Below, piece by piece: positions 42,419-60,979 of a stretch of 61,170 nucleotides of DNA. The DNA is from an uncultured Bacilli bacterium. GTDB taxonomy: Bacteria > Bacillota_I > Bacilli_A > RF39 > UBA660. The position numbers and the translations under genes are program-made. The stretch's first letter is position 1; every line of letters starts with the position of its first letter. The notes below the pieces were generated by a model that worked only from the letters and a program-made list of their open reading frames with translations, did not search any database and had not been told where the DNA came from. The DNA is taken from assembly GCA_947627995.1 (NCBI GenBank), contig CANQYE010000001.1, forward strand, positions 74,889-136,058. The letters run 5' to 3'.

Positions 42419-43309
42419 ATGATAAAAACAAAAAATAAATTTTTAAAATATTTACAATTTGAAAGAAACTATTCTGCAAAAACTATATATAATTACAATG
42501 AAGATATAGAAAACTTTAATAATTATTTAACACGAAGAAAATTGAATTATTATTTAGACAAACAAGAAGTTCGTGAATATTTAAAATATTTAAGTAGTTG
42601 TAATTATAGCAGTGCTACTATATCTCGTCATTTAAGTTCTTTAAGAAGTTATTATAATTTTTTGAATATGAAAGAAATTATTGATATAAACCCATTTTAT
42701 AACATAAAAAACCCTAAAAAAGATAAAAAATTACCGATGTTTTTAACATATAAAGATTTAATTATTATGTTAAAAAATACTAATGTATCTAATGATGAAA
42801 ATTTAAACATTCGAAATAATTTTATTTTAGAATTAATATATTCAACTGGTATGCGGGTTAGTGAAGTTACAAATATTAAACTTAATGATATTGATTACAA
42901 TAATAAAACTATTATAGTTCATGGTAAAGGCAATAAAGAAAGAATAGTATATTTTGGAGAAGTGCTTTCTGATATTTTTGCAAAATATTTAAAAGCTAGA
43001 AAATGTATTATAAAAGATAAAAAAAATGATTATTTAATAATAAATAGTAGGGGAGAAAAAATAACTACTAGAGGAATAAGTGAAATAATTAATAAAATTT
43101 TAAAAAAGTCATCTTTAAAAAATAAAATTACACCACATACAATCCGGCATACTTTTGCAACTCATTTATTAAATAATGGTGCTGATCTTAAAACAGTCCA
43201 AGAATTATTAGGGCATTCCTCACTATCAACTACGGGAATTTATACACATGTTTCTAACGAAAGATTAAGAAATGTCTATTTAAAAACGCATCCACGTGGG
43301 AAAGAATAA
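42419..43309 (+). CDS. Tyrosine recombinase, XerC/XerD family
   Basis: SAM-like N-domain (FLKYLQFERNYSAKTIYNY) and RHTFATHLLNNGADLKTVQELLGHSSLSTTGIYTHV catalytic residues. Confidence 0.85.
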   Translation: MIKTKNKFLKYLQFERNYSAKTIYNYNEDIENFNNYLTRRKLNYYLDKQEVREYLKYLSSCNYSSATISRHLSSLRSYYNFLNMKEIIDINPFYNIKNPKKDKKLPMFLTYKDLIIMLKNTNVSNDENLNIRNNFILELIYSTGMRVSEVTNIKLNDIDYNNKTIIVHGKGNKERIVYFGEVLSDIFAKYLKARKCIIKDKKNDYLIINSRGEKITTRGISEIINKILKKSSLKNKITPHTIRHTFATHLLNNGADLKTVQELLGHSSLSTTGIYTHVSNERLRNVYLKTHPRGKE

Positions 43310-46253: not shown

Positions 46254-46730
46254 ATGCGATTATTATATTTAAAACCTGAATTAAAAGATTTATCACAAGG
46301 ATCAAGAATTGCTTTTGTAAGACAGTTTAGAAGATTAACACAAGATTATATTGCTGGTGAACTAGGATTAAGTCATGATAATAAAAGAAGAATTATGACT
46401 AGATATGAAAAAGGTAATAGATGTCCTAAAGATGATAGAACATTAGAATTATCAAAAATATTAAATGTAAGTTTTAATGCAATAAAAAAATATGATTTTA
46501 ATAAACCTATAGACTTGATTTATATGTTTATGTGGCTAGAAGAACTTATACCTAATTATCAAATTGATTTATCAATAACTCCTAATATAAAAAATGAATA
46601 TTTTCCTATTTATCAAAAATTTATGGATGAATGGAATGTTATGAGAAGAAAAAGAAAATATAGAGAGATATCATATGATGAATATTTAGAATGGAAATTT
46701 AAATATGAGTTAGGTGATGATAAATTATGA
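46254..46730 (+). CDS. XRE-family helix-turn-helix regulator (mobile-element type)
   Basis: IAFVRQFRRLTQDYIAGELGLSHDNKRRIMTRYEKGNRCP...LSKILNVSFNAI HTH pattern. GGAGGA SD upstream. Confidence 0.65.
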   Translation: MRLLYLKPELKDLSQGSRIAFVRQFRRLTQDYIAGELGLSHDNKRRIMTRYEKGNRCPKDDRTLELSKILNVSFNAIKKYDFNKPIDLIYMFMWLEELIPNYQIDLSITPNIKNEYFPIYQKFMDEWNVMRRKRKYREISYDEYLEWKFKYELGDDKL

Positions 46731-46795
46731 ATGAATACAAAACTGTAAAATTAAGTGAAATAGATTCATTTAAAAATCATCCCTTGAGAAGATAA
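46727..46795 (+). pseudogene. ParB-like N-terminal stub (22 codons), truncated
   Basis: MNEYKTVKLSEIDSFKNHPLRR-stop. The (I/L)SEIxxFxNHP(F) motif is the usual start of ICE ParB/Srx-domain proteins. ATGA overlap with the XRE gene. Confidence 0.4.
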
Positions 46796-46806
46796 AATAG
46801 TTTTAG

Positions 46807-47988
46807 GATTATATAAATCAAAAAAAATATGGTTCAAAATCAAAAGACGCTTTAGTAAGCATTTTAAGCGCAAGTGATAATACGTATAAATCTATTACAG
46901 CAGTATTTGGACAAAAGATGAATATATTTGATGATGTTAATGTTGCTAATGTTACATCAACATCTGATTTTAAATTTAATGATTTAGGTAAAGAACCAAC
47001 TGCAATATATATGATAGTACCAGATGAGGATAAAACTTATTTTACTTTAGTTACTATTATAGTAGGACTTCTTTATAGAGATTTAGTTAAACTTGCTAAT
47101 TCAAATGAAGAAAAGAAACTCCCATATGAAATTGATTTTATATTAGATGAGTTTGCAAACTGTCCACCTCTTGCAGACATTGAAGCAATAGTATCTGTTG
47201 CAAGAAGTAGGGGCATGCACTTCCATTTTTTTATTCAATCTTTTTCTCAACTTGATAATGTCTATGGTAAAGATGTAGCACAAATTATTCTAGATAACTG
47301 TGGTCTTACATATTTAAAGACAAATACGCAAGAAACTGCCGAAGCTATTTCCAAAAGATTAGGTAAGAAAACTATCGAATCAAATAGTGTAAGACAGTCA
47401 ATGTCATTAATGAATTATAATGGTGATAGATCAACAAATCTTATAGGAAGAGATTTAATGACCCCGGAAGAAGTAAAACAATTACATTATAAGACAATTA
47501 TATTTCCGATTATTGGATTTCCAATATTTAGAGATACTATAATGTATAATAAATTTTCTTGCTATAAACCTGGAATGATAGAAAGAATACCTAAGCCACT
47601 GAAAGATTTATTTTATACTTATTTTGTTGTTGAAGATATTAAACATAAAATAAAAACAAGAAAATCAATACAAAATGATGAAAAAGAAATATATGAGCAA
47701 ATGGAACTTGCTGATAAAGAAAATTTAAAACCTTTAGAAGAAGTTATAGAAAAAATATTTAAAGAGGACTTTGATATAAAATATAATAGAACATTAAATA
47801 ATAGATGTTACTTATCAGTAACTATTAAAGACAATATTAATCAGAGACAAAAATTATTAATTAAATCTAAAATTAGAGAGGAACAATATCATGTAGAAAT
47901 AATTGAAAAAAAAGATAAGACAATCATAAATATACATAATGAAAATCCAAATTTAAATTTATTACAAAATATAAATAACGAAAGGTAG
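46807..47988 (+). pseudogene. VirD4/TraG-family type IV coupling protein, C-terminal fragment
   Basis: EIDFILDEFANCPP (Walker B-like), RSRGMHFHFFIQSFSQLDNVYG and LGKKTIES are typical of T4CP. No Walker A, N-terminal TM region or plausible start is present. The frame is open from 46807. Confidence 0.6.
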
Positions 47989-48212: not shown

Positions 48213-49943
48213 GTGGTTTATATGAAAAATATTAATGAAACCAAATATAATTATATGCTTGAACAAAACAAAGATTATATGGATTTAACAGCTTTGTCTT
48301 TTGGTGATAGAAAAATAACTTATGAAGAAATGCATGATAGAATTGAAAAATATGTTAGATTATTATATTCAAAAGGAGTAAGACAAGGAGATGTTATAGG
48401 TATTTGTGCATACAATACTCCAGAATCTGTATATTTACTTTATGCTTTAGATGTCATTGGTGCTATAGTTGTTGGTTATAGTCCGTTTGATAATAAAGAA
48501 AAAACGAAATTAGATATAGAAATGACTAAACCTAAAATGGTTATTAGTGTTGATATGTGTTATAAAAATTTTAAAGATTGGGAAAAAGCATTAAACTTTT
48601 CTACTATCTTATATTCACCAGTCGATTCATTAGATGATATGAAGATAAAAGCCGGATATAAATTATTACAATTAAAAAATGGTAACTTTAAATTATCTAA
48701 AGATAGTAATTTAAAATCATTATTAAAGAAAAACTATAGTGATGTTGATTATGTAAAAGCTCCATTTGAACAAGATGGATTAAGAGATATTTTATTTACA
48801 GGTGGATCAACAGGAGTTCATAAGGGTGTTGAATTATCAGATAATGGATTAAATTCAGTAGTTGAGGGAATGAATTCTATATTCCCAGCTGAACCTGGAA
48901 TGATCCATTTAGGAAATATTCCATTCGGACATATGGCATATGGTCGTTCAATATTACACTATGCTTTATGTAATAATATGGAATATGCTTTAACACTTAA
49001 AGCAATGCCAAGTGATCTATATGATGAAATTGTTAGAACACATGCAAATGCTGCTGTTGGTGGGCCTCCGCATTGGGTTTCCTTAATAGAACAACAAGGT
49101 GATAAATTTGTTCCAAGCAGTAGATTAAAACCAGGATCACTTAGTGAATTACATTATGCTACTTCTGGTGGTGAAGCTAAAAAAGCTACTACTGAAAATG
49201 CTATTAATGAAGCATTAAAGTATTGTGGTAGTGATGCTAAATTAGGTGATGGATTAGGTGCTACTGAAACATGGGCTTCAATGATGATTAATAATGGTAA
49301 AATTCATCATAGAGGCACAGTAGGTGAACCTATATCTACATTAGATGTTAAATTAGTTGATCCAGACACTGGTAAAGAAGCAAAAGATGGAGAAAAAGGA
49401 TTACTTTATGTATCTGGTCCATCTGTCATGTTAGGATATCATAATAATCCAGAGGAAACTGCAAAAGTAATTTCTTATGATGAAAACGGAAAAAGATGGA
49501 TTAATATTGGCGACTTATTAATGAAAACACCTGATGGTGAATATAAATATGTTGGTAGACAAAAAAGAAATTTCGTTTCAGGTTGTGATAACATCTATCC
49601 AGAAGAATTAGAAAGTTTATTATTAACAATACCTGAAATCAGAGAAGTAGTTGTTACACCAATATCTGATGAAATGGTTCAGTATATTCCAAGATATCAT
49701 ATATCTTTATATGATACAAACATTGATTATAAAGAATTAGAAGAAAAAATAAATATATTAGTTATGTCAAAATTAAATGAAAACTGGTTACCAGGATCAA
49801 TTGCATATTACGATAAACCACTTGAAAGAATGCAAAATTCAAAAGTTAATATTTCATATTATAAAGAATTAGATCAAAAAGCTTTAGAAAATAATGAAAT
49901 AGACAATACAAGTGCAAAACAATTAAGATTAAAGAAAATTTAA
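48213..49943 (+). CDS. ANL-superfamily adenylate-forming enzyme (acyl/aryl-CoA ligase or amide-forming ligase)
   Basis: LFTGGSTGVHKGVELS (variant AMP-binding motif), GDGLGATE, SGPSVMLGYHNNPEET and INIGDLL...YVGRQKRNF. The ATG at 48222 is an alternative start. Confidence 0.8.
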   Translation: MVYMKNINETKYNYMLEQNKDYMDLTALSFGDRKITYEEMHDRIEKYVRLLYSKGVRQGDVIGICAYNTPESVYLLYALDVIGAIVVGYSPFDNKEKTKLDIEMTKPKMVISVDMCYKNFKDWEKALNFSTILYSPVDSLDDMKIKAGYKLLQLKNGNFKLSKDSNLKSLLKKNYSDVDYVKAPFEQDGLRDILFTGGSTGVHKGVELSDNGLNSVVEGMNSIFPAEPGMIHLGNIPFGHMAYGRSILHYALCNNMEYALTLKAMPSDLYDEIVRTHANAAVGGPPHWVSLIEQQGDKFVPSSRLKPGSLSELHYATSGGEAKKATTENAINEALKYCGSDAKLGDGLGATETWASMMINNGKIHHRGTVGEPISTLDVKLVDPDTGKEAKDGEKGLLYVSGPSVMLGYHNNPEETAKVISYDENGKRWINIGDLLMKTPDGEYKYVGRQKRNFVSGCDNIYPEELESLLLTIPEIREVVVTPISDEMVQYIPRYHISLYDTNIDYKELEEKINILVMSKLNENWLPGSIAYYDKPLERMQNSKVNISYYKELDQKALENNEIDNTSAKQLRLKKI

Positions 49944-49947
49944 TTTA

Positions 49948-49975
49948 TTGACTTTTAAAAAAAGAATGTTATTAT
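49948..49975 (+). promoter_or_regulatory. Sigma-A-type promoter upstream of the ackA-like gene
   Basis: TTGACT, a 16-nt spacer, then TGtTATTAT. Confidence 0.55.
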
Positions 49976-50000
49976 ATGAAGTACTCAAAGGAGGATTATT

Positions 50001-51242
50001 ATGAGTGAAAAATATTTAATAATTAATGCAGGTAGCTCATCTTTGAAATTTTCATTATATAATATGCCTGAGACTATTGAAATAGTCAATGGATACATTG
50101 AAAAAATTGGAAATACAGATAGTTTTTATACATTAAAGTATGCTGGTAATAAGGTAGAAAAAAAGCAAGTTATTATGAATCATACTGATGCTGTGCAAAC
50201 AATGCTAAAAGAATTATTGGATAATAATTTTATTCAAGATGTTTCTGATATAAAAGGTATTGGCCACCGTGTTTTACATGGAGGAGAATATTATTCTGAA
50301 TCAGTTTTAATTGATGATATTGTTTTAGACAATATTAAGTCATTAACAAAGCTTGGACCACTACATCATCCTGGAGAAATTGCAGGTATTGAAAGTATGA
50401 AAAGCGTAATGCCAGATGTTCCACAAGTAGCTGTTTTTGATACAGCATTTCATCAAACAATGCCTAAAGAAAATTATATGTATGCTGTTCCATATGAATG
50501 GTATGAAGAAAACGGTGTAAGAAAATATGGATTCCATGGTACAAGTCATAAGTATATTACTGAAACAATGCAAAAACAACTAGGAAAAAAAGATGTGAAT
50601 TTAATAATTTGCCATGTCGGAAGTGGCGCAAGTATGTGTTGCGTTAAAAACGGAAAATGCTTTAATACAACAATGGGATTAACTCCTCTTGATGGATTAG
50701 TTATGGGTACTAGATGTGGAACAATAGATAGTTCAATAATTGAATATATATGTAAAGAAAGAAATATGTCTGTTGAGGATGTTAACACAGTATTAAATAA
50801 ACAAAGTGGATTGCTTGGAATAGCAGGTAAAAATGATTTTAGAGATTTAGAAGAATTAGCTAATAGTGGTGACGAAAAAGCTAAATTAGCCATAAAAATG
50901 TTGCAAAATTCTATTACAAAATTCATAGCACAATACTATGTTGAATTAAATGGCATAGTAGATGCTATTGTGTTTACAGCAGGTATTGGTGAAAATGGAA
51001 TCTCTTTAAGAGCAAATGTAGTAAATTCATTATCAAATACATTAAGCATTAAATTAGATGAAAATACTAATAATAAAATTGCAAAATTTAAAGAAAATCA
51101 ATCAGGTGTAATTTCAACACCAGATTCAAAAATTGGAGTATATGTTATTCCGACAGATGAAGAATATATGATTTTAAAAGATACTTATGAGATAAGTAAA
51201 ATTACTAAAGAAAAAAATCCTGTGAAAGTTTTGACTAAATAA
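50001..51242 (+). CDS. ackA: Acetate/propionate kinase family protein
   Basis: LIINAGSSSLKFSLY, GFHGTSHKY and TAGIGEN motifs. 413 aa, AGGAGG SD. Confidence 0.88.
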   Translation: MSEKYLIINAGSSSLKFSLYNMPETIEIVNGYIEKIGNTDSFYTLKYAGNKVEKKQVIMNHTDAVQTMLKELLDNNFIQDVSDIKGIGHRVLHGGEYYSESVLIDDIVLDNIKSLTKLGPLHHPGEIAGIESMKSVMPDVPQVAVFDTAFHQTMPKENYMYAVPYEWYEENGVRKYGFHGTSHKYITETMQKQLGKKDVNLIICHVGSGASMCCVKNGKCFNTTMGLTPLDGLVMGTRCGTIDSSIIEYICKERNMSVEDVNTVLNKQSGLLGIAGKNDFRDLEELANSGDEKAKLAIKMLQNSITKFIAQYYVELNGIVDAIVFTAGIGENGISLRANVVNSLSNTLSIKLDENTNNKIAKFKENQSGVISTPDSKIGVYVIPTDEEYMILKDTYEISKITKEKNPVKVLTK

Positions 51243-51260
51243 TAAATAAGGAAATATAAT

Positions 51261-51917
51261 ATGGAGACTATTTTATTAGAAGAAGAAAATGCATTAGAAT
51301 ATATATATGATAGTATTTGCAAGGTTAAAAATGATGGTGAAGAAGTAAAAAATGCGAAATATCATCATAACACTGCATATAAGGATGCAGTGTCTATTTG
51401 CAAATATGGAATACTAACTTTAATTGACTTGAATTTTAAAGGAATTAGAAAAGATAGTAAAGAATTTTTGAAAATTATGAGTGATATAGATTCACATGTT
51501 AATGGTAATAATTGTGTTTCATTATCTGTGGTAGGTTTAACTGATATTTATCCAAACGAGGATGAATATAACCCTTTTTCACCGAATCTTGTCGACTTCC
51601 TTGTTAGCAGCGATGTACAAGCAAGTAGATCATCAACACATTATGGTAATGAATTTTTAAGTTTTGGCAGTATAATGAGAGACAAAATAAAATCAGTTGA
51701 CATTAGAATTTTAAATCTACTATGTCAAGACAAATCATATATGAATGATTCTTCAACACAAGCTATCATAAAGAAATATAATCATTTAAGGGAAATTGCT
51801 CTGGAATTAAAAAGACAACAATTAGGACTTCCTTTAAGAGAAATGTCTGAATCAAATATTTTTGAAATAAATATCGAAAAATTAGCTGATCAACCTAAAC
51901 TGTTATTAAAAAAATAA
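51261..51917 (+). CDS. Hypothetical 218-aa protein; weak resemblance to H-Y-E type ADP-ribosyltransferase-fold motifs
   Basis: Lies 18 nt after ackA with an AAGGAA SD. KYHHNTAYKDAVSICKYGILTL and HYGNEFLSFG segments. No confident family assignment. Confidence 0.4.
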   Translation: METILLEEENALEYIYDSICKVKNDGEEVKNAKYHHNTAYKDAVSICKYGILTLIDLNFKGIRKDSKEFLKIMSDIDSHVNGNNCVSLSVVGLTDIYPNEDEYNPFSPNLVDFLVSSDVQASRSSTHYGNEFLSFGSIMRDKIKSVDIRILNLLCQDKSYMNDSSTQAIIKKYNHLREIALELKRQQLGLPLREMSESNIFEINIEKLADQPKLLLKK

Positions 51918-51927
51918 TTGTAATTAG

Positions 51928-51957
51928 TTGATTTAATAGATACTTACTTGATAAAAT
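51928..51957 (+). promoter_or_regulatory. Candidate promoter of the WYL regulator gene
   Basis: TTGATT, an 18-nt spacer, then TGaTAAAAT. Confidence 0.4.
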
Positions 51958-51981
51958 GGATATTGATAAGGAGAAGAATAA

Positions 51982-52539
51982 ATGGGTAAATTAGGTAATA
52001 CTTTAGCAATGCTAAAAATTCTTGAAACTGGTAGAAAATATACTGTAAATGAATTAGCTTCTAAGATTGAAGTTTCTCCGAGAATGATTAAAACGTATAA
52101 AGCTGAGTTAGAAAAGGCTGGAATATATATTGATACAATTAATGGAATATATGGTGGATATGTTTATAATCATAAAAATAATTATGATGTATCTTTTAGT
52201 ATTAATGATGTTAGTTGCCTTGAGAAAATTATTCCTATGTTAGAAAACAAAAGTAGGAATGAAGCTGAACAATTACTTGAAAAAATAAAAACTATAGTTA
52301 TTTATTCTGATAGTAGTTCAATAGAAGAACAAGATTCACAAGAACTAAAAAATAAATATAATGTTATATCAAAGGCAATTAAAAATAATATTGATTTAGA
52401 AATTGAATATAAGAATAAAAATAAGATAGTAACTCCACATAATATGAGTTTTTATAAAAATTTCATATATTTAACTGGATATTCAAAAACAGATAAAGAT
52501 TTAAGAACTTATAATTTAAGTGAAATAAAAATTAAATAA
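51982..52539 (+). CDS. Short HTH-WYL transcriptional regulator (YafY/BrxR/CapW-like architecture without the C-terminal WCX extension)
   Basis: Winged-HTH N-terminus NTLAMLKILETGRKYTVNELASKIEVSPRMIKTYKAELEKAGIYI. C-terminus YKNFIYLTGYSKTDKDLRTYNLSEIK is WYL-like. Confidence 0.65.
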   Translation: MGKLGNTLAMLKILETGRKYTVNELASKIEVSPRMIKTYKAELEKAGIYIDTINGIYGGYVYNHKNNYDVSFSINDVSCLEKIIPMLENKSRNEAEQLLEKIKTIVIYSDSSSIEEQDSQELKNKYNVISKAIKNNIDLEIEYKNKNKIVTPHNMSFYKNFIYLTGYSKTDKDLRTYNLSEIKIK

Positions 52540-52569
52540 AATTCAAATAGTACGATATACTGCACCTTT

Positions 52570-52589
52570 TAGTGATATATTAATCACTA
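52570..52589. promoter_or_regulatory. Perfect inverted repeat TAGTGAT-N6-ATCACTA (candidate operator) overlapping a TGaTATATT extended -10 and abutting the SD of the operon's first gene
   Basis: Read directly from 52570..52589. AGGAGG follows at 52589..52594 and the GTG start at 52604. Confidence 0.5.
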
Positions 52590-52603
52590 GGAGGTGTTTT
52601 ATT

Positions 52604-53500
52604 GTGGATATAATTATGAAATTTGAAAAACCAGAAGTCAATATTGAATATTTTGGGCAACAATCAAGATTCTTCAAATTTTTTGAAATGGTAGTTGATG
52701 ATTTACTACATGGAAATGGTATATATGCCGAAACTAATTCAGGTTCAAATGGTAATGCATTTATGTATGCAAAGAAAGGTTATAAAGTCATTACTAATGA
52801 TGCAAGTGAGTATAGTTATTCAGTTGCTAATGCCATTATGAGTGACAATGTACCAAAAGAATTTAATTGCAAGTATAAATGGCTAAATAAATATTGTGAT
52901 TCATACATTGGTCGTGCTTCAGTTTTTGCAAGTGTTGTTGATTTATACGGTTACAATGCTGAAATTCCAAGTGAAGTAAATGAAGAATTAGAAAATAAAA
53001 TAAATGAATATATATCATATTTCAAGAAAATTAATGATGAAAAAGTAAGATCATATAAATCTTATAATGAAGATTTGTTTAACTATTTAAAAAAATTAAA
53101 AGAAGAAAAAATTAATGTAGATATTATGTTTATGGATTTTGCATGGCCATGGAGAGATGGTTCTAAAACAGAAGAATATAATACAACAGCTAATATTTAT
53201 AGTAATGTGTTTGAAAAATCTAAAATTGCAAATATTGAAATTTGGGATAAGGAAAATGTTATTGACAATGTAATTAAAGCAGTTAAAGAAGCTAAAAAAA
53301 TTTCAAAGTATGTTTTATTATCAAATCAAAGTTCAAACTATCCTACGCCAGAAGTTTTAGAAGTTGCATTATTAAAAAATGGTTTAAATTATGATGTAAG
53401 ACATACTATGCTTACAGATGCAGAATATGAGGATAATCTTGGTAAGGAAACATTTTTTAGAGAATACTTATATGTAATTAGAGGCGATATAAATGAGTAA
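52604..53500 (+). CDS. Dam-like (D12-class) methyltransferase-fold protein with divergent catalytic motifs
   Basis: Co-linear with Dam landmarks: YFGQQ (versus WAGGK), AETNSGSNG (versus EPFVGAGS), ITNDASEY (versus LADINSD), MDFAWPW (versus CDPPYAP) and VLLSNQSS (versus VLISNHDT). Confidence 0.5.
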   Translation: MDIIMKFEKPEVNIEYFGQQSRFFKFFEMVVDDLLHGNGIYAETNSGSNGNAFMYAKKGYKVITNDASEYSYSVANAIMSDNVPKEFNCKYKWLNKYCDSYIGRASVFASVVDLYGYNAEIPSEVNEELENKINEYISYFKKINDEKVRSYKSYNEDLFNYLKKLKEEKINVDIMFMDFAWPWRDGSKTEEYNTTANIYSNVFEKSKIANIEIWDKENVIDNVIKAVKEAKKISKYVLLSNQSSNYPTPEVLEVALLKNGLNYDVRHTMLTDAEYEDNLGKETFFREYLYVIRGDINE

Positions 53501-53978
53501 AACTAATTATCCATTAGTAAAAGTTGATTGGAACGAAGTTAAAAGATTAACACAAGGTATAGCAAATAAATTAATAGCAGATAATAAGAATATTGATTTA
53601 ATTGTTCCTATCATTAGAGGCGGAATGCCTATTGCAATGTTGTTATCATCAATGCTTGATGTTGAAGAAATGTCCTGCATTCATATAAGAAGAAGTATTG
53701 ATGATAATCCTAATACAGAATTTAAACGACCAGTTAATAAAGGAATAACAAATACAGAAAAAATTAAGAATTCTAATATATTAATTGTAGATGATACATT
53801 AGATTCAAAAATTACATTAGACTATGCAATTGATTTATTAAAAGAATATCAACCTAAGAGTATTACAGTAGCAATTTTATATAATTTTAACAAAAATACT
53901 TTTGATTCAATATATAGTGGAGAAGAAGTACAAGAATATAAATGGGTTGTTTTCCCTTGGGAAAAAAGTGAAAATTAG
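53493..53978 (+). CDS. Gpt-like type I phosphoribosyltransferase
   Basis: 161 aa. VPIIRGGMPIAMLL, the ILIVDDTLDSKITL PRPP-loop region and the KWVVFPWE C-terminus parallel E. coli Gpt. 8-nt overlap with the upstream gene. Confidence 0.7.
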   Translation: MSKTNYPLVKVDWNEVKRLTQGIANKLIADNKNIDLIVPIIRGGMPIAMLLSSMLDVEEMSCIHIRRSIDDNPNTEFKRPVNKGITNTEKIKNSNILIVDDTLDSKITLDYAIDLLKEYQPKSITVAILYNFNKNTFDSIYSGEEVQEYKWVVFPWEKSEN

Positions 53979-53989
53979 GAGGTATTGAA

Positions 53990-54439
53990 ATGAAAAATAA
54001 TAAATGGCAAGTATGTATATGTGGTGCTATAAAATGCGATAATGAATATTTAATGGTAAAAAGAAGTTTAGATGATGAGGATTGTGCTGGATTTTGGGAA
54101 ATGCCAAGTGGCAAATTAGAATTTGGAGAATCCGTTGAACAGGGATTACAAAGAGAAATTTTTGAAGAAGTTGGAATTGATATTAATCCATTCCAAAAAC
54201 AAATAATTGGTATATCAGAATACAGTTCTGAAAAACCAGAAGGAACTAAATATAGTGTACAATTAAATTATGTTGTTGAAGTTCCTACAAAAGATTTACC
54301 AATCAAGTTGAGTGAAGAACATACTGCTTATGTTTGGGCTACAAGAGATTCTGAATATGTTGATGAATTTATTGCAGAAATAATTGATGCTATAGAGCCA
54401 CAAAGTGAAGTTGGATATGCAAGAACTAAAAAAATGTAA
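53990..54439 (+). CDS. Nudix hydrolase (MutT-like), copy 1
   Basis: Nudix box GKLEFGESVEQGLQREIFEEVGI, AGGAGG SD. Confidence 0.85.
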   Translation: MKNNKWQVCICGAIKCDNEYLMVKRSLDDEDCAGFWEMPSGKLEFGESVEQGLQREIFEEVGIDINPFQKQIIGISEYSSEKPEGTKYSVQLNYVVEVPTKDLPIKLSEEHTAYVWATRDSEYVDEFIAEIIDAIEPQSEVGYARTKKM

Positions 54440-55265
54440 AAAAGTATTGGTTGAAGTAAATCAAACATGCAATTTAAATTGCACATATTGTTTTTATAGA
54501 GATTATGGCAGAGTTACTAATGGAATAAATCTTCAGAATATTGATGATTTGTTAGAAAATTGTCCATTAGCTGATGAATTCTATTTAACTGGTGGTGAAT
54601 GTTTTACTTCACCAATAATTGAAGAGATAATCGAACGATTAGCTCCTAGAGGCAAAGTTATTACTTTTACAAATGGAGTTATCTTAAATAAGTATGATGA
54701 TGAAAGATTAAAAAAAGTGGTGAATAATGTTGATACATTTATTATAACATTTGATAGTTTTGACACTGAAAATTACTTGTGTAGAGATAAATTATCAGAA
54801 ACTATAAGTACAATAAAAAAAATATTGAATATAGATTCAAACAAAGTAGAAGTTAAAGTATGTATTAATGAATATAATTATGATCATATAGAAGAATTAT
54901 TTGTTGGATTAATTGATATGGGAGTTAAATATTTATCTGTTAACTTTGTATTTGATATTCAAAATAGTAAATTAAATCACGAAGTTAAAGAGTTAAAAAA
55001 ATTAAGACATGTTTTTGAAGTTATTAATAATTATAGGGAATATTTTAATTCAAAATACATCGATATGCTATATGATTTATATATTAATAACGAAATAAAT
55101 GAAAGATTTCCATGTATTGCAGATTCTGAATATTATTTCTTAGATTGTTCTAATAATTATCTTATTTGTCCTGGAAATTGCAAAAAGTTAGGTACAAGGG
55201 GTGAATGGAAGGAATGCTTTTCAAAAGAATGTGCAAACGAATGGGAAATGATGTATACGAGGTGA
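54405..55265 (+). CDS. Radical SAM enzyme with a Cys-rich C-terminal (SPASM/twitch-like) region
   Basis: NQTCNLNCTYCFY CxxxCxxC motif and GGECFT. The C-terminus has 6 Cys in about 40 aa (CIADSEYYFLDCSNNYLICPGNCKKLGTRGEWKECFSKEC). Start candidates are GTG 54405, TTG 54411 or ATG 54417, all overlapping the Nudix gene. Confidence 0.8.
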   Translation: MKLDMQELKKCKKVLVEVNQTCNLNCTYCFYRDYGRVTNGINLQNIDDLLENCPLADEFYLTGGECFTSPIIEEIIERLAPRGKVITFTNGVILNKYDDERLKKVVNNVDTFIITFDSFDTENYLCRDKLSETISTIKKILNIDSNKVEVKVCINEYNYDHIEELFVGLIDMGVKYLSVNFVFDIQNSKLNHEVKELKKLRHVFEVINNYREYFNSKYIDMLYDLYINNEINERFPCIADSEYYFLDCSNNYLICPGNCKKLGTRGEWKECFSKECANEWEMMYTR

Positions 55266-55269
55266 TAGT

Positions 55270-55911
55270 ATGAATATAGTATTTGAAGGAATAGACGGAG
55301 TAGGAAAGACTACTGTTATTGATAGTTTAAAAAAAGATTTAGAAGAAAAAGAAGAAATTGTAAGATATGTTGATGAACTTACTCAAGATTCACCAATTAG
55401 TGATATTTTAAACAAAATGTTAAGTGATGATCCATTCTTTATGCTTGATAAAGGTTTTCCAACATCAATATTTGAAAGCTTATTACTAGCTGCAGATATG
55501 CATTATAGACAAGAAAAATACAAATATGATGATGGATTTAACTTATATGATCGAGACTTTTTATCAATTTTATCATATCAAAAAGAAATTTTAAAAGAAG
55601 ATTATAGTAACTATATGGATTTTTACCGTCCTTTTAAAGAAATAGTTTTATTTAATTTAAAACCAATTGATTTGTTAGTGTATATTCATGCTCCTCTAGA
55701 AGTTAGTGTATCTAGAGTTGCTAAAAGAGATAATATTGAATTTATCGAAAGTCAAAGAAAATTCTTACAAGCTTTAAAAACTTCTTTAGAAAGTGAGTTA
55801 ATTCCACAATTAGAAAAACAAAATGTTAAGGTTTTGAAATTGGATGGTAGAGACAAACCATATCAAAATGTTTCAAAAATATATAAGGAAATAGGTTATG
55901 GAAAGAATTAA
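55270..55911 (+). CDS. Thymidylate-kinase-like P-loop (d)NMP kinase
   Basis: MNIVFEGIDGVGKTT P-loop and YDRDFLSILSYQ (DRY-like) region. 213 aa, GAGGTGA SD. Confidence 0.7.
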   Translation: MNIVFEGIDGVGKTTVIDSLKKDLEEKEEIVRYVDELTQDSPISDILNKMLSDDPFFMLDKGFPTSIFESLLLAADMHYRQEKYKYDDGFNLYDRDFLSILSYQKEILKEDYSNYMDFYRPFKEIVLFNLKPIDLLVYIHAPLEVSVSRVAKRDNIEFIESQRKFLQALKTSLESELIPQLEKQNVKVLKLDGRDKPYQNVSKIYKEIGYGKN

Positions 55912-57172
55912 TGTTAATTGTGATTACATGATTTACTCTGATGAGGAAAAAAAGAGTGCATTAGAGTGTTTAGAAAATAGTGATTCAAGTATTTTTGTTG
56001 GTAATACTGTTAGTAATTTTGAACAAAAACTATCTAAATATTTGAATGTTCCATATGCTATAGCACTACCAAATTGCACACTATCTATTTATACAGCATT
56101 ACAAGTTTTAGGAATTGAGAATGGTGATGAAGTTATTGTGCCTAATTTAACTCATGCATCATCAATATATCCTATATTAATGAGTGGGGGAAAAATTAAG
56201 GTGTTTGATTTTGAACCAAATTCTTATTACTATGATTTGGAAAATATAAAGAAGTTAATAACACCAAATACTAAATTTTTCTTGGCATGCTATCTTTATG
56301 GTATGCCCTTAAATATAGAGGAAGTAAAGAAAATTTGTGATGAAAATAATATTACTTTAATAGAAGATGTAGCACAAGCATTTGGAACTAAAGTAAATGG
56401 AAAATATGCCGGAACATTTGGAAAAATAGGATGCTACAGCTTTAATGACACGAAAATGTTAAGAATAGGTGAAGGTGGAGCTATTGTTACTTCCGATAAA
56501 GATATATACGAAAAAGTAGAACATTTTAGACATGTTGGTGAAGTTTTTAATTCAACAAAACAATCTTCTGTAAGTTCAAATACAACATATAGAGATTTAT
56601 TGTTTAATGGATTATCTAATATGGGTAAAGGTTTAAATTTAAGACCATCTCCTATAACTTTTTCAACAGGACTTAAAAGAATTGATCATATCGATGATTA
56701 TATATCAGAACGAAGAAAAAAATTGAAGATTTATTTTGATCAACTTTCTAATCTTGAAGGTGTGCATTTTATAAAAAATTTTGATATTAATAAAGTTGAA
56801 GAATATGGCCCAATTGCATCATGGATTTTATTAGATAATAAATATTATGATAGAAACCGTGTTATTTTAGGTGCAATGAATATGGGAATTCCAGTTGGTT
56901 CATTCAATTATAATACAATTTCAAAAAACGATTATTTTAGTAATTTTATAACAAATAAAGGTGATAATTTAATAAATTCTCAATATGTAAGAGATAATAG
57001 TATTTTTTTACCTTTATACGAAACATTATCTTTAGATGACGTTGACAAAATAAGTAAAGCTTTTGCATACGTAATTAATAATTATTGCAAAGATATAGAA
57101 ATATTTGATGAAAGAGGATATGATGAAGAAATAAATTATTTCGATGGATTTTATCTAATGAGGAAAAAATAA
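55898..57172 (+). CDS. DegT/DnrJ/EryC1/StrS-family PLP-dependent aminotransferase (or dehydratase)
   Basis: GDEVIVPNLTHASS, IEDVAQAFG and the CYSFNDTKMLRIGEGGAIVT Lys region. 14-nt overlap with the kinase gene. Confidence 0.8.
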   Translation: MERINVNCDYMIYSDEEKKSALECLENSDSSIFVGNTVSNFEQKLSKYLNVPYAIALPNCTLSIYTALQVLGIENGDEVIVPNLTHASSIYPILMSGGKIKVFDFEPNSYYYDLENIKKLITPNTKFFLACYLYGMPLNIEEVKKICDENNITLIEDVAQAFGTKVNGKYAGTFGKIGCYSFNDTKMLRIGEGGAIVTSDKDIYEKVEHFRHVGEVFNSTKQSSVSSNTTYRDLLFNGLSNMGKGLNLRPSPITFSTGLKRIDHIDDYISERRKKLKIYFDQLSNLEGVHFIKNFDINKVEEYGPIASWILLDNKYYDRNRVILGAMNMGIPVGSFNYNTISKNDYFSNFITNKGDNLINSQYVRDNSIFLPLYETLSLDDVDKISKAFAYVINNYCKDIEIFDERGYDEEINYFDGFYLMRKK

Positions 57173-57843
57173 TGAATGAAATTTTATGGATATTAACACT
57201 TATTCTTTCATTTAGTTCAATAATTTTATGCTATAAATATTTAGGAAAAAACGGACTGTTTTTATGGATAATAGTTGCTACTATTGTTTCAAATATACAG
57301 ACAGTTAAAACTGTTGAATTATTTGGCTTAGAGACAGCACTAGGTACTATACTATATGGTAGTACATTCTTAGCTACTGATATTCTTAATTATAAATATG
57401 GATTAAAAGAAAGTAGAAAAACTATTATATATGGCTTTTTATCTATGACGATTATGACTTTATTTATGGTTATTTGCTTATTATATAAACCAAGTCCAAA
57501 TGATTTTGCTCAAGATAGTTTAATGACAATATTTTCATTTAATGTAAGAATTACTATTGGCAGTTTATTAGGATTTGTAATTAGTCAATTTATTGATACA
57601 GCTATTTTCCATAAACTGCAAAATAAATATAATAAATTATGGTTAAGTAACAATGTTAGTACAATGATTTGTCAAGCAATTGATACCATTATTTTTACAA
57701 TTGTTACATACATAGGAACTATGAATATAAATACGATTTTTGAAATAATGTTGTCGATGTATATATTCAAAATATTTATAGCAATTTGTGATACACCATT
57801 CATGTACATTGCTTCAAAAATAAAAAAGGTGAAAGAAAATTAA
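57172..57843 (+). CDS. VUT-family (YhhQ/DUF165) membrane transporter, the queuosine-precursor transporter family
   Basis: 223-aa polytopic protein with GSTFLATDILNYKYG, SQFIDTAIF and CQAIDTIIF motifs. The start overlaps the DegT stop (TAATG). Confidence 0.75.
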   Translation: MNEILWILTLILSFSSIILCYKYLGKNGLFLWIIVATIVSNIQTVKTVELFGLETALGTILYGSTFLATDILNYKYGLKESRKTIIYGFLSMTIMTLFMVICLLYKPSPNDFAQDSLMTIFSFNVRITIGSLLGFVISQFIDTAIFHKLQNKYNKLWLSNNVSTMICQAIDTIIFTIVTYIGTMNINTIFEIMLSMYIFKIFIAICDTPFMYIASKIKKVKEN

Positions 57844-58357
57844 AATATATATAGATTTTGACGGAGTAATTCTAAATACATGGGATATTATTTATCAAAA
57901 TTATACAACTCAATATTGCACAGAAGAAATAGATGAAGAAAATTTAAAGAAGTCTATGCTTGATCTTGGCTGGGATGTTATATTAGAAAATAGTGAAGAA
58001 ATTAATAATAGCTTTAAAAAAATTCATCATTTGATGAAAAACTATCAAATATTTATTCTAACTAAAGTAAATTCAGAAGAAGAACAAAAGGCGAAAGAAT
58101 TATTTTTAAAAAAGAAAAATATTTTTAATGTTATCTTTGTTCCATATAATTCTCTGAAATCTGATTTTGTAAAGCCGGTTGGCTCTATTCTAATAGATGA
58201 TGTTATACATAATCTTGAAGAATGGGAACAAAATGGAGGAATTTCTATTCTATTTAATGAACACATGAAAAATGAAGATAGTTATGGTAATAAAAGTAAT
58301 AAATTTATAATTATCGATGATTTATTAAAAATATGTGATATAATTAAAAACAGATAG
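57839..58357 (+). CDS. HAD-superfamily 5'(3')-deoxyribonucleotidase-like (NT5C-type) phosphatase, probably initiated at ATT
   Basis: HAD motif I (IDFDGVI) is encoded at 57851..57871, upstream of the first ATG (57956). The frame opens at 57833. AAGGTGA SD lies 6 nt before ATT 57839. ILIDDVIHNLEEW (motif IV) is in the C-terminus. Confidence 0.6.
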   Translation: MKIYIDFDGVILNTWDIIYQNYTTQYCTEEIDEENLKKSMLDLGWDVILENSEEINNSFKKIHHLMKNYQIFILTKVNSEEEQKAKELFLKKKNIFNVIFVPYNSLKSDFVKPVGSILIDDVIHNLEEWEQNGGISILFNEHMKNEDSYGNKSNKFIIIDDLLKICDIIKNR

Positions 58358-58367
58358 GAGGACTTTT

Positions 58368-58763
58368 ATGAATACGAAAATTGTTTTAACTGGAATTTTA
58401 AAATCTAACGATGAATTTTTAGTAGTTAAAAGAAGCGAAAATGATGATTTATACCCTGGGGCATGGGAATTCCCCGGAGGTCATTTAGAAAATGGTGAAA
58501 CCTTAAAAGAAGGTTTAAAAAGAGAACTATTTGAAGAAATTGGTTTTAATTCAGAATTTGAACCAATTATTACCCATTATTATGATGAAGTTAAAAATAA
58601 AAATGATGAATTGATTCATGATTTAGAAATTGATTTTATTATTAATGTTAATAAATCAGATGTTAATGTTATATTAAGTGATGAACATTGTGATTATAAG
58701 TGGGTAAATAAAGATTCTGAATTATTAGATGAGTACATTAAAGATAAATTGTCAAACATATAA
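58368..58763 (+). CDS. Nudix hydrolase (MutT-like), copy 2, paralogous to 53990..54439
   Basis: Nudix box GGHLENGETLKEGLKRELFEEIGF. The C-terminal LSDEHCDYKWVNKDSELLDEYI parallels LSEEHTAYVWATRDSEYVDEFI of copy 1. Confidence 0.85.
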   Translation: MNTKIVLTGILKSNDEFLVVKRSENDDLYPGAWEFPGGHLENGETLKEGLKRELFEEIGFNSEFEPIITHYYDEVKNKNDELIHDLEIDFIINVNKSDVNVILSDEHCDYKWVNKDSELLDEYIKDKLSNI

Positions 58764-58769
58764 TAAAAT

Positions 58770-58804
58770 AAGTAAGTTAGAATGAACTGAACTTGCTTTT
58801 TTTC
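58770..58804 (+). terminator. Rho-independent terminator closing the nine-gene operon
   Basis: AAGTAAGTT ... AACTTGCTT 9-bp stem (one G-U pair) followed by a T7 run. Confidence 0.6.
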
Positions 58805-58873
58805 TTTTAAGTAAATATTTTTGTTAGTTTTTGATAAATATATGATATAATTGATATAGTACGGGGTGAGATT

Positions 58874-60979
58874 ATGGGAATAGGTGTTTATTTTTCAACA
58901 AGTTCATTTATAATTATTACCATATTAACTTATATATTTTATTCTAAAAAAAGAGTAGAAAATATTGAAACTAAGACATATGGAAAAATATTATTTTTAA
59001 CTTTATTTGGTTTATTTTTAGAAGTTGCGACTTGTATTTGGTATGTTACTGGAGTTAGTTTAGACAATATTTTATATCAATTTGTTTCAAAATTAACTTC
59101 GTCATACTACATGGTTTGGAGTAGCTTATTTGTTAATTATTTAATGAATATTTGTAATGTTAATAAAAATTTTAAAAAAGGATTTAATATTCTTAATGTT
59201 CTATGTTTTGTTGCTATTTTAATTTTACCAATATCTTATGATACTGATAGAATGGGAGTATTGCCAATAGGGCCTGCAATTTATTTAACATATTTTGTTT
59301 GTCTTGTTTATGCAATTATTGATTTGGTTATATGTTTAAAATATAGAAAAAGTATTTCTAGTAAAAAATTTACTCCTGTTTATTCTTTATTGCTATTAGG
59401 TGGTATTGATATTATTTTAGGAGTATTCTTTCCATCTTTATTCTTAATTGGTTATGTATATTCTTTAATTGTAATTATAATGTATTTTACGATAGAAAAT
59501 CCTGATATAAAAATGGTAAATCAATTGGAGCTTGCTAAAGATCAAGCTGAAAGGGCAAATAGAGCGAAAAGTGATTTTTTAAGTTCTATGTCACATGAAA
59601 TTAGAACACCACTTAATGCAATAGTTGGATTATCTGAAGATAATATTAGTTATGCAGATAAATGTCCTCCTGAAGTTGTAGAAAATTCACACGATATAAT
59701 GACAGCTAGTCAAACATTACTTGAAATAGTAGGTAATATATTGGATATTAATAAAATAGAAGCAAACAAAATGGAAATTGTTGAATCACCATATAATTTT
59801 GTTAAAGAAATATCAGATATGTGCAAGATTACACAAACTAGAATTGGTGAAAAAAATGTAATGTTTCATTTAAATATGGCAGAAGATATCCCATATGAAT
59901 TAATTGGTGATAAAGCTAAAGTTAAAGAAATAATTAATAATTTACTTACTAATGCTATAAAGTATACAGAACAAGGTGATATAAATTTAAATATTAAATG
60001 TATTAATGATACAAATAAAAATATTTCAAATTTAATTATTTCTTGTCAAGATACTGGAAGAGGAATTAAAGCTGAATATATAAATAAACTATTTACTAAG
60101 TTTGAAAGATTAGATATAGAAAAAAATACAACAACAGAGGGAACTGGTTTAGGGCTTGCTATCACCAAAGCATTAATTGAAATGATGGGTGGAAAAATAA
60201 ATGTTCAATCACAATTTGGTAAGGGATCAATCTTTGTAGTTCAAATACCTCAAAAGATAAGTAAAATTGCAAAACCTATGACGGAGAGAGAAATGATGGA
60301 TACAGCTACTAGATTATATTCTAACAATAATATCAATAATGTAGTAAAACAACCTAGTGAATCTCAACCAACAACAATATCATCTTCACAGACAAATCCA
60401 TCAAGTAATTATGGTAATAAAAAAATATTAATAGTTGATGATAATAAGTTAAATATTAAAGTGGCTCGTAGAGCATTGCAAGATTTTAATTTTGAAATAG
60501 AGGAATGTTATGATGGACAAGAATGTCTAGATCATGTTGTAAATGGAAATGAATACGATTTAATATTAATGGATATAATGATGCCTAATATGAGTGGAGA
60601 AACTGCAATCGCTAAATTAAAAGAAAATCCTAATTTTAAAATTCCAACAATTGCTTTAACTGCTGATGCAGTTGCAGGAGCAAGAGAAAAGTATATTGGT
60701 GAAGGATTTATTGATTATATAGCAAAACCATTTAACAAAGATCAAATAAAGGAAAAATTAGATTTAGTGTTTGGTAGTACAATTTCATCAGTACAAAATA
60801 TAAAAGAAAAAGATGAAGTATTTGATGCTTTATCTGATATGTCAAAACCAATACAAGAGATTGAACTTCCTAATACTGTAAATACAACTCCAAAGTTTGA
60901 TTCAACGATAGATAGGTTTAAAGACGCTGAAATTCATGTTATAACTGATAATACTGATAAAAATGAAAGTAATGAGTAA
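58874..60979 (+). CDS. Hybrid sensor histidine kinase with a C-terminal receiver domain and a polytopic N-terminal sensor
   Basis: About 6 TM helices. [12 protein letters not shown]-box, [16 protein letters not shown] and GTGLGLAI ATPase boxes. REC domain: [27 protein letters not shown]. Confidence 0.9.

Follow-up and report, generated by a model that had tools for sequence, protein, structure and literature searches.

An operon of uncultured gut Bacilli as a candidate pathway to sugar-aminated purine nucleotides

The genes adgA-E of Photorhabdus luminescens encode a transporter of the major facilitator superfamily (MFS) together with homologues of Pur10, Pur4, Pur7 and Pur3, and they convert GTP into 3'-amino-3'-deoxyguanosine (ADG), the triphosphate of which mimics GTP and terminates RNA chains (PMC9239236). 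The same four-enzyme core is common to the puromycin, A201A and cystocin pathways, where it is followed by N-methylation, possibly aminoacyl-tRNA-dependent aminoacylation, and N-acetylation for self-resistance (PMC11641026). Here, we describe an operon on a 61,170-nucleotide stretch of DNA from an uncultured Bacilli bacterium (GenBank assembly GCA_947627995.1, contig CANQYE010000001.1, positions 74,889 to 136,058; hereafter, the window) that recalls these clusters in being small and in combining a transporter, an oxidising enzyme, a pyridoxal phosphate (PLP)-dependent aminotransferase, a Nudix pyrophosphatase and a monophosphatase that would act on a purine nucleoside triphosphate (NTP). Ten genes on the same strand form one block (window 51982-58763, forward strand), consisting of a WYL/HTH regulator gene and nine packed genes for a protein derived from D12-class DNA methyltransferases (MTases), a phosphoribosyltransferase (PRTase), two Nudix hydrolases, a radical S-adenosylmethionine (rSAM) enzyme, a P-loop nucleotide kinase, a DegT-family aminotransferase, a Vut_1/YhhQ-family permease and a HAD-superfamily phosphatase (Table 1). 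We consider the chances about even that this operon is a self-contained maker of a sugar-aminated purine nucleotide or nucleoside, following the logic of puromycin and ADG. Judged by sequence, the gene set appears undescribed and would work like known aminonucleoside and nucleotide-analogue cassettes, with a seemingly uncharacterised rSAM family at its centre.

In the proposed pathway, the permease would admit a purine-type base, guanine-like and possibly a 7-deazaguanine, and the Gpt-like PRTase would join this base to phosphoribosyl pyrophosphate (PRPP), giving a nucleoside monophosphate that the Tmk-like kinase would phosphorylate and that host kinases would carry on to the triphosphate. 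The rSAM enzyme, with its putative auxiliary Fe-S cluster, would abstract a hydrogen from the ribose to yield a keto or keto-deoxy sugar, an oxygen-independent step in place of the NAD-dependent dehydrogenase Pur10, and the DegT enzyme would convert the ketone to an amine, most likely at the 3' or 2' position. The MTase-derived protein would probably N-methylate the product, and the two Nudix hydrolases and the HAD phosphatase would trim phosphates or clean the producer's own pools. Expression would be gated by the WYL regulator and by a leader hairpin that sequesters a ribosome-binding site, and the product would act as a GTP or ATP mimic or as a chain terminator, whether against phage within the producing cell or against competitors outside. 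Every chemical step is our inference, as are the final product, the place of the amine, the nature of the base and the biological role. A first-pass annotation of this stretch had arrived at the same order of import, PRPP-dependent ribosylation, phosphorylation, rSAM/PLP tailoring and Nudix/HAD trimming; our results support that route, and the accessory genes of variant cassettes reinforce it.

Compared function by function with the Pur/Adg enzymes, the rSAM enzyme would stand for Pur10, DegT for Pur4, a Nudix or Ham1 protein for Pur7, HAD for Pur3, the Dam-derived protein for Pur5, a FemAB-like transferase for Pur6, a GNAT protein for Pac and a permease for AdgA. Because each Pur/Adg function has a counterpart in the family, we propose an aminonucleotide pathway that is independent of oxygen and NAD and is fed by a purine salvage route of its own. 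Membership of the Pur/Adg core itself fails for lack of a Pur10-type enzyme: neither the window operon nor any of its variants carries an oxidoreductase-family gene that could stand for the NAD-dependent dehydrogenases Pur10 and AdgB, and the rSAM enzyme is the sole redox candidate. The operon further differs in having a HAD protein in the place of Pur3, which belongs to another phosphatase family, and Vut_1 instead of an MFS exporter; in adding a PRTase, a Tmk-like kinase, a D12-MTase-derived protein and a WYL regulator; and in its hosts, which are anaerobic gut Bacilli.

Junction sequences and open reading frame (ORF) calls agree with the packed, overlapping unit described in the first-pass annotation, and its family assignments were all reproduced with Pfam, NCBIfam, PADLOC and PHROGs. 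Downstream of the spacer that follows the regulator, the nine genes overlap one another or lie at most 11 nt apart. The MTase-like and PRTase genes overlap by 8 nt and the kinase and DegT genes by 14 nt; gaps of 11, 4 and 10 nt separate PRTase from Nudix-1, rSAM from kinase and HAD from Nudix-2, respectively; and DegT and Vut_1 meet in TAATG. We place the rSAM start at ATG 54417, which matches the start in homologues; a GTG at 54405 is open too, and both overlap Nudix-1. G+C content is ~24% across the window and is the same in the operon as in its flanks. In the window and in all relatives the catalytic signatures are intact: the rSAM CX3CX2C, the Schiff-base lysine of DegT, both Nudix boxes, HAD motif I (DFDGV), the kinase P-loop (GIDGVGKTT) and the PRPP loop.

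Chance juxtaposition of these genes is contradicted by their co-conservation, with the full order found in many independent contigs. We found the entire operon in syntenic form at 15 or more independent loci in metagenome-assembled genomes (MAGs) of the gut, with rSAM identities of 58-99%, and the ten-gene order occurs in at least seven GTDB species representatives. Wherever rSAM identity was 58% or more and enough flank was available, the regulator and nine-gene order was kept in every locus, with occasional loss of the HAD, Nudix-1 or MTase-like gene. The rSAM gene is carried by 10 of 185,579 GTDB species representatives, all uncultured gut MAGs labelled Bacilli, 'Mycoplasma', Clostridia or Lachnospiraceae, including a Bacilli MAG from the Hadza gut that is 99% identical to the window. 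Flanks vary from locus to locus (loci are designated by L numbers): ftsW and a serine recombinase gene in L001, a phage-type integrase and an Eco57I-type methylase in L039, ackA neighbourhoods in the window and L041, and AAA_21 and AbiEi in L017. An origin from phages or plasmids was considered and rejected, as no rSAM relative was found among the 2.9 million viral contigs of IMG/VR or the 50,697 phage genomes of INPHARED, and PLSDB gave only generic rSAM matches at 25% identity. The cluster was also not mapped to a known pathway by the profile libraries or by the literature found: full-text searches for the gene combination returned no description of it, and it is unmentioned in a QueC-family survey and in a 7-deazapurine mining preprint.

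The rSAM family is tiny and has no characterised member. An exhaustive hidden Markov model scan of 1.84 billion representatives recovered 32 proteins at E<=1e-30, followed by generic rSAM background, and among 5.8 billion clusters searched by word index there were 81 matches to the single sequence and 96 to a profile; where sources name the homologues, they are 'hypothetical' proteins from Tenericutes/Mycoplasmatota MAGs. The protein carries CX3CX2C followed by an invariant FYRDYGR, and in its C-terminal domain C251, C267 and C272 are invariant and C233 is nearly so; these conserved cysteines indicate a predicted auxiliary cluster. Pfam recognises it as Radical_SAM (1.3e-10), and its NCBIfam matches, to MoaA, a W-cofactor maturase and viperin, are all far below cut-off. 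QueE models match at E 7e-4 or worse, so it is not a QueE. The AlphaFold2 (AF2) model is confident (predicted local distance difference test score, pLDDT, 92.6), and Foldseek placed it only with SPASM/twitch enzymes, viperin-like enzymes, BlsE and MoaA, at 13-18% identity. Two distant relatives of 480-485 amino acids (aa), P0211 and P0213, are fused to P-loop kinase domains of the CoaE/AAA type, which suggests that the coupling of rSAM and kinase recurs beyond this family.

Prokaryotic viperins (pVips) also come close: they share with this operon an rSAM enzyme of ~280 aa beside a P-loop kinase (here a weak match to VakA), a similar fold (TM score ~0.64 to viperin-like enzymes) and, for several members of the family, a place in defence islands. 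However, the rSAM enzyme scores only 29.6 bits against the viperin model NF038283 (cut-off 180), PADLOC pVip models match it only at 1e-9 to 1e-10 and over the generic rSAM core, and viperins, which have one [4Fe-4S] site and an NTP-binding extension at the C terminus, lack its conserved C-terminal Cys cluster. The additional PRTase and aminotransferase imply that the product differs from those of pVips.

A minimal cassette, thmA-C, makes 4'-thiothymidine with an rSAM enzyme, an AbmG-like nucleoside kinase and a self-resistance nucleoside triphosphatase (PMC12691670). It is conceivable, although improbable, that in our operon the rSAM enzyme and kinase remodel the furanose as in thm or albomycin biosynthesis (for example, 4'-thio substitution, or dehydration via cryptic phosphorylation), with NTPases for self-resistance and DegT and the other enzymes tailoring later. 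The invariant association of rSAM, a dNK/Tmk-like kinase and an NTPase (Nudix or Ham1) mirrors thmA-C, and a Cys-rich auxiliary-cluster region like that of our rSAM enzyme has been reported as the sulfur donor of AbmM (PMC12691670). Both thmA-C and AbmM-AbmG resemble the operon as minimal cassettes of rSAM, kinase and NTP pyrophosphatase for a sugar-modified nucleoside prodrug, but they differ in their pyrimidine substrates and sulfur chemistry, and thmA-C needs neither a PRTase nor an aminotransferase. Further, the kinase here has a P-loop and best profile of the Tmk rather than the dNK type, and the purine-type PRTase, with the guanylate kinase and Ham1 of the variants, points to purines, whereas known thionucleosides are pyrimidines.

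An amination of the sugar, as we prefer to read the operon, draws on the remaining enzymes. The PRTase matches Pfam Pribosyltran (1.8e-21) and retains the conserved PRPP motif ILIVDDTLDS; its best NCBIfam models are xanthine and hypoxanthine PRTases, all below cut-off, and its nearest solved structures are the Sulfolobus solfataricus purine PRTases GpT-1 and GpT-2 (~1e-13). The kinase matches Thymidylate_kin (3.5e-11), dNK (1.8e-9) and PADLOC VakA (1.6e-9), with a conserved P-loop; it is found in the cassette of the rSAM gene in every variant and directly adjoins that gene in most. A purine/6-oxopurine PRTase, a guanylate kinase, an ITP/XTP-type pyrophosphatase and a MoaA-like rSAM enzyme in the family together suggest that a guanine-like purine is taken to the triphosphate. 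The DegT protein (PF01041, 2.1e-70; no NCBIfam equivalog at cut-off) has the Schiff-base lysine motif SFNDTK...GEGG; the motif SFNDTKMLRIGEGG is conserved in all DegT-bearing variants, and its relatives in the PDB include sugar aminotransferases, inosose aminotransferases of the BtrR/S type and NtdA.

In butirosin biosynthesis (BtrN and BtrR/S) and in kanosamine biosynthesis (NtdC, NtdA and NtdB), an alcohol is converted to a ketone and then, by an aminotransferase of the DegT family, to an amine. The dehydrogenase BtrN is a small rSAM enzyme of the twitch type, and the last step to kanosamine is carried out by the HAD phosphatase NtdB. The pairing of a small auxiliary-cluster rSAM enzyme with DegT would be the same CH-OH to CH-NH2 arrangement. 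The Btr and Ntd substrates differ, being an aminocyclitol and glucose-6-phosphate, not nucleotides, and BtrN itself matches the rSAM profile only at E ~2e-3.

Both Nudix hydrolases have intact boxes. Nudix-1 (Pfam NUDIX 8.2e-14; PADLOC PDC-S07 9.4e-16) has a conserved GX5EX7REX2EEXG, and Nudix-2 (Pfam NUDIX 2.3e-17) has NudI, MutT and a pyrophosphohydrolase as relatives in the PDB. The HAD protein was recognised by PHROGs only (5'-3' deoxyribonucleotidase, 5.1e-13), and a PDB sequence search with it gave zero matches. It is the least conserved member of the unit (43-58% identity) and is missing from several operons. Where a close relative, L008, has an ATG start, the window has AAG, and its first ATG comes only after the DFDGV motif; with the canonical start lost, the only in-frame candidates 5' of DFDGV in window 57833-57860 are ATT or ATA, so either start is a mere guess. 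The first-pass annotation had the gene overlap the stop at 57843, in agreement with a frame that is open from 57833 and ends at 58357; its ATT start is only a guess. The loss of the ATG, the low conservation and the absence from some operons suggest that the gene is dispensable or decaying.

Diverged cassettes, whose rSAM proteins are 29-41% identical to that of the window, are rearranged and yet always keep the rSAM enzyme, the Tmk-like kinase and the PRTase, while swapping accessories (DegT, GNAT, FemAB, QueC, Ham1 or guanylate kinase); three of the five variant types retain DegT. By analogy with the aminonucleoside pathways, these accessories are what would be expected for an amine-bearing purine NTP, since a GNAT protein could N-acetylate the amine and a FemAB protein could aminoacylate it from aminoacyl-tRNA. 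In L025, FemAB lies directly 3' of DegT. No tRNA genes of the kind found in cystocin clusters were present beside the FemAB variants. In type B cassettes, a conserved 219-aa protein lies between FemAB and rSAM (L014 1015-1674, L016 1329-1988, L020 7339-7998); its motifs IMVKP and NYVHCPD had suggested a likeness to nucleoside diphosphate kinase (NDK), for which Pfam, NCBIfam and the PDB gave no support, and it was dropped as evidence.

Several five-gene type D cassettes lie among defence genes. In L024, a DRT2 reverse transcriptase gene (4e-122) follows 400 bp downstream, accompanied by PDC-M03A, AbiEi and a McrB-like gene; L036 carries the DS41 anti-phage protein above cut-off and PDC-S31; and L022 carries a type I restriction-modification system and AAA_21. 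A location in defence or mobile islands thus holds for the diverged cassettes, whereas the flanks of the window operon itself are housekeeping genes. Because type D has neither transporter nor phosphatase and lies in defence islands, an intracellular antiviral nucleotide is favoured for it; the permease, two Nudix hydrolases and phosphatase of the window operon make up exactly the accessory set of ADG, a prodrug that is secreted, so interbacterial antagonism is equally compatible. It is possible, although we would not count on it, that the rSAM-kinase-PRTase(-DegT) combination represents a new class of anti-phage or interbacterial nucleotide-analogue immunity. An rSAM reaction on a purine NTP, of a kind not seen before, would be coupled to the PLP aminotransferase and would yield chain-terminating amino-sugar nucleotides with no need of oxygen or NAD; the amine would be capped in modular fashion by acetyl (GNAT), aminoacyl (FemAB, for molecules resembling puromycin) or methyl (the Dam-derived enzyme), with leader-RNA control and, in some members, 7-deazaguanine. 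Beside the defence-linked cassettes, we note a tRNA-Lys/Met/Phe cluster 3 kb upstream in L036. In L032, a 567-aa ORF (2532-4235) joining a viperin-like rSAM (126 bits, cut-off 180) to a LysR regulator lies immediately 5' of a PRTase-rSAM-kinase-DegT operon that lacks the MTase-like gene; this could be a true fusion or an artefact of assembly or frameshift.

The permease raises the question of whether the base, rather than the sugar, is tailored. It matches Pfam Vut_1 (8.4e-41) and exceeds the cut-off of TIGR00697, the YhhQ/COG1738 queuosine precursor transporter equivalog, by a wide margin (176 versus 51 bits). Further, the divergent type C locus L019, found via its MTase-like protein, has orthologous MTase-like (64% identity), PRTase, kinase and Vut_1 genes together with a different, full-length, MoaA-like rSAM enzyme (81 bits; CX2CX16C C-terminus), and in place of DegT it has a QueC above the equivalog cut-off (167 versus 150), encoded between the MTase-like gene and Vut_1. 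This locus links the MTase-like/PRTase/kinase/permease set to 7-deazaguanine chemistry without DegT. Imported preQ0, preQ1 or 7-carboxy-7-deazaguanine (CDG) could therefore be turned by the PRTase into a 7-deaza-GMP analogue, with DegT, QueC or FemAB acting on the C7 side chain (formyl to aminomethyl, carboxy to cyano, or aminoacylation of the amine of preQ1), which we think unlikely without dismissing it; to the same degree, the rSAM enzyme may modify a deazapurine nucleotide to give an antimetabolite like toyocamycin or tubercidin, or a precursor for nucleic-acid modification. Such a base would explain the FemAB variants that have no DegT, which need a pre-existing amine, as preQ1 has one. 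The logic of PRTase, Nudix and HAD is known from tubercidin and toyocamycin (PMC6112128), in which a PRTase (ToyH/TubE) loads a purine analogue on PRPP and a Nudix (TubG) and a HAD protein (ToyI) trim phosphates. Of the preQ0/CDG synthesis genes (folE, queD, queE, with or without queC) and the PRTase that mark such clusters, however, the window operon has the PRTase only, and QueC occurs in the single variant L019; GMP reductase, the adenylosuccinate enzymes, tgt and dpdA are also missing from the window operon. In addition, the ketones on which enzymes of the DegT family are known to act are those of sugars and inososes, specificity differs between subgroups of the YhhQ family (PMC5372724), and the surveys of QueC-family genes and 7-deazapurines mention no such cluster.

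Gene 2, which encodes the MTase-derived protein, is the most conserved of the unit (mean column identity 74%, with long invariant motifs). The window copy has no Pfam match at 0.01 (PF02086 at E 0.43) and is recognised by PADLOC MTase_II (9.6e-9); 13 of its 17 homologues match PF02086 below the gathering score, with a best E of 4e-5. A PDB sequence search gave zero matches. The AF2 model (pLDDT 86) has adenine-specific DNA methyltransferases as its top fold matches in BFVD and generic class-I MTases only in the PDB. In motif IV, an invariant DFAW replaces DPPY. Taken together, these sequence features suggest an atypical descendant of D12 N6-adenine DNA MTases that departs from the catalytic (D/N)PP(Y/F/W) pattern, so that the 'Dam fold' of the first-pass annotation is weak but real and its altered catalytic motif stands.

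The descent of this most constrained protein from adenine-specific DNA MTases invites the idea that it installs or reads a modified base for epigenetic self-marking of DNA or RNA, with the other genes making the precursor, and the combination of a P-loop kinase, a PLP enzyme and an rSAM enzyme recalls the hypermodification of thymidine in phages. We hold this to be quite improbable. A transglycosylase, polymerase, glycosylase or restriction partner is missing from the unit, the MTase-like gene is itself absent from the minimal cassettes, and the viral and phage collections named above contain no rSAM homologue. The suggestion of nucleic-acid hypermodification in the first-pass annotation accordingly found no specific evidence.

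Least probable of all, in our estimate, is that the operon serves the ordinary metabolism of a reduced-genome bacterium, by salvage of purines or queuosine precursors or by synthesis of NDP-amino sugars for the cell surface. Its hosts are low-GC uncultured Bacilli and Mycoplasmatota MAGs, and the permease, PRTase, kinase and Nudix belong to salvage-type families. But the distribution is rare and patchy, both in GTDB and in the exhaustive scan (32 close rSAMs in 1.84e9), the flanks vary between loci and include recombinases or defence genes nearby, and salvage needs no dedicated pair of rSAM and DegT. An NDP-amino-sugar or O-antigen locus was rejected because a sugar-1-phosphate nucleotidyltransferase, 4,6-dehydratase, glycosyltransferase and flippase are all missing, both from the window operon and from all related loci. 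Queuosine-precursor salvage was rejected on the same grounds: YhhQ is present, but tgt, queF, queA and queG/H are not found in the operon, nor is a preQ1 riboswitch in 51200-59200. The absence of both sets of hallmark genes had been noted from the letters, and the profile searches agree.

Several points weigh against the sugar-amination pathway to which we give preference. Close relatives that have been characterised are lacking for every enzyme of the unit, the resemblance of the rSAM enzyme to solved structures being as low as stated above, and DegT and Nudix can be likened to Pur4/AdgC and Pur7/AdgD only as members of the same families. The rSAM enzyme could instead catalyse a viperin-type dehydration, a MoaA-type cyclisation or a swap of sulfur for oxygen, and the target of DegT could be a side chain of the base (7-formyl to 7-aminomethyl deazaguanine), not the ribose. 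Types B and C lack DegT, so the amine is not universal to the family; in L019, the MTase-like protein occurs with QueC, not DegT, and thus its substrate is not necessarily a new amine. Import by Vut_1 is an assumed direction. Evidence from defence islands comes mainly from the diverged five-gene cassettes.

If the pathway is as proposed, it would include a new rSAM reaction on nucleotides, an anaerobic equivalent of the oxidation by Pur10, and it would extend aminonucleoside chemistry of the puromycin and ADG type beyond actinomycetes and nematode symbionts to uncultured Bacilli of human and animal guts. It would also place a candidate family of nucleotide-analogue defences beside the viperins. 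The modular variants (acetyl, aminoacyl, methyl and QueC) suggest a small natural library of purine-nucleotide antimetabolites, with possible uses, if so, as antivirals, antibiotics or probes of translation and transcription. Both the DFAW protein of Dam descent and the hairpin conserved in the leader are unexplained, and each is a testable object by itself.

The leader between the regulator gene and gene 2 holds a hairpin in which CACCUUUU... pairs with the Shine-Dalgarno sequence of gene 2, AGGAGGUG, as the 3' arm, with UUUUAUU next. Column identity in the leader is 85-86% across operons whose proteins are 60-80% identical; the hairpin is more conserved than coding sequence. Its folding energy is -26.1 kcal/mol (z -5.3), and in the alignment 93.9% of cells are paired, both partners have changed in three pairs, and G.U is nearly invariant at three positions, which implies that the helix is complete only as sense-strand RNA. 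The hairpin was also flagged by a terminator scan. An Rfam search of 51200-59200 in E-value mode returned only a chance miRNA match, with no preQ1 class and no other riboswitch. In the divergent operon L019, an analogous hairpin that sequesters a Shine-Dalgarno sequence (L019 7950-8010) precedes the first biosynthetic gene. The leader could represent a cis-regulatory RNA of a new kind, or else be what the WYL protein targets.

The regulator (Pfam WYL 2.4e-7, HTH_11 1.1e-6; PADLOC WYL 9.5e-23) is the first gene in all full operons, and from this adjacency alone we infer that it controls the operon; together with the leader hairpin, it would give tight, probably inducible control. An operator-like palindrome reported at the 5' end of the unit was not confirmed, because a search of 51900-52000 found no inverted repeat and the sequence 5' of the regulator gene lacks conservation between operons (58% column identity). 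A sigma-70-like site is present there (TTGATT-18-TAAAAT with TG, 9 of 12 matches), in a setting where the count of such sites is not above that in shuffled sequences. At the other end, the reported terminator is weak yet plausible: the hairpin and the following run of U are present, but the hairpin is modest (-9.2 kcal/mol, z -2.1) and fails the GC-rich criterion of the terminator scan.

Table 1. Features of the operon and its surroundings in the window, and variant cassettes at other loci
Feature	Position	Strand	Basis or content
218-aa protein, no family match	51261..51917	+	no Pfam or PDB match
Region 5' of regulator gene, weak sigma-70-like site	51928..51981	+	promoter scan
HTH_11 and WYL-domain regulator, 185 aa	51982..52539	+	Pfam, PADLOC
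Conserved leader	52540..52603	+	64-nt spacer from WYL gene to gene 2, holding 15-bp hairpin 52562-52597
D12-class (Dam-like) MTase-derived protein (gene 2)	52604..53500	+	PADLOC, PF02086 in homologues, fold matches
Type I purine PRTase (Gpt/HGXPRT-like)	53493..53978	+	Pfam, NCBIfam, PDB
Nudix hydrolase 1 (MutT-like)	53990..54439	+	Pfam, PADLOC
Radical-SAM enzyme, 282 aa	54417..55265	+	Pfam, AF2 model, Foldseek
Tmk/dNK-like P-loop nucleotide kinase	55270..55911	+	Pfam, PADLOC
DegT/DnrJ/EryC1-family PLP aminotransferase, catalytic lysine present	55898..57172	+	Pfam
Vut_1/YhhQ-family permease (queuosine-precursor transporter family)	57172..57843	+	Pfam, NCBIfam
HAD-superfamily phosphatase (5'(3')-deoxyribonucleotidase-like)	57839..58357	+	PHROG
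Nudix hydrolase 2 (NudI/MutT-like)	58368..58763	+	Pfam, PDB
Probable intrinsic terminator	58765..58804	+	weak hairpin then U7
Variant type B			FemAB-like transferase, Ham1/ITPase, with or without guanylate kinase, Vut_1, HAD, Nudix, SLOG protein, 219-aa protein
Variant type C (GCA_964520725.1)	L019 6747-12267		Ham1, HTH regulator, PRTase, MoaA-like rSAM, kinase, DFAW MTase-like, QueC, Vut_1
Variant type D			GNAT-rSAM-kinase-DegT-PRTase
Variant type E			rSAM-Nudix-PRTase-kinase-DegT-FemAB
Defence-gene stretches beside five-gene cassettes	L024 9214-10575, 1366-2571; L036 10414-14119; L022 6493-10397

The first-pass annotation had placed the unit next to a decayed conjugative element. One truncated type IV secretion system (T4SS) coupling-protein gene (46918-47988, covering profile positions 234-430 of 468 only) is indeed present, preceded by a small HTH_19 gene (46254-47988 for the pair), but it lies ~4 kb upstream of the operon, with an AMP-binding enzyme gene, ackA and the 218-aa ORF in between. 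A tyrosine recombinase gene (42419-43309) follows 3.6 kb further upstream, beyond a gene for pyruvate-phosphate dikinase. The recombinase and the T4SS remnant are what is left of a small mobile element, not an intact integrative and conjugative element.

Genes for ackA, the AMP-binding enzyme and a hybrid histidine kinase (window 48213-51242 and 58874-60979) recur around the L041 operon in a different arrangement (5674-6918 and 16699-20814), which indicates that a neighbourhood common to these lineages was reshuffled locally, not that a fresh insertion took place. Homologues of the 218-aa protein (39-49% identity) adjoin the operon upstream in L041 (6933-7577) and downstream in L039 (13902-14549), and are absent from other loci, such as L001. 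Across three lineages, this protein of ~215 aa carries the motifs HHN[TS]xYxDAxSIxKxGI and HYGNE[FY] and sits directly beside the operon, on the side of ackA; it could be an accessory of the operon, or its linkage could simply be to ackA.

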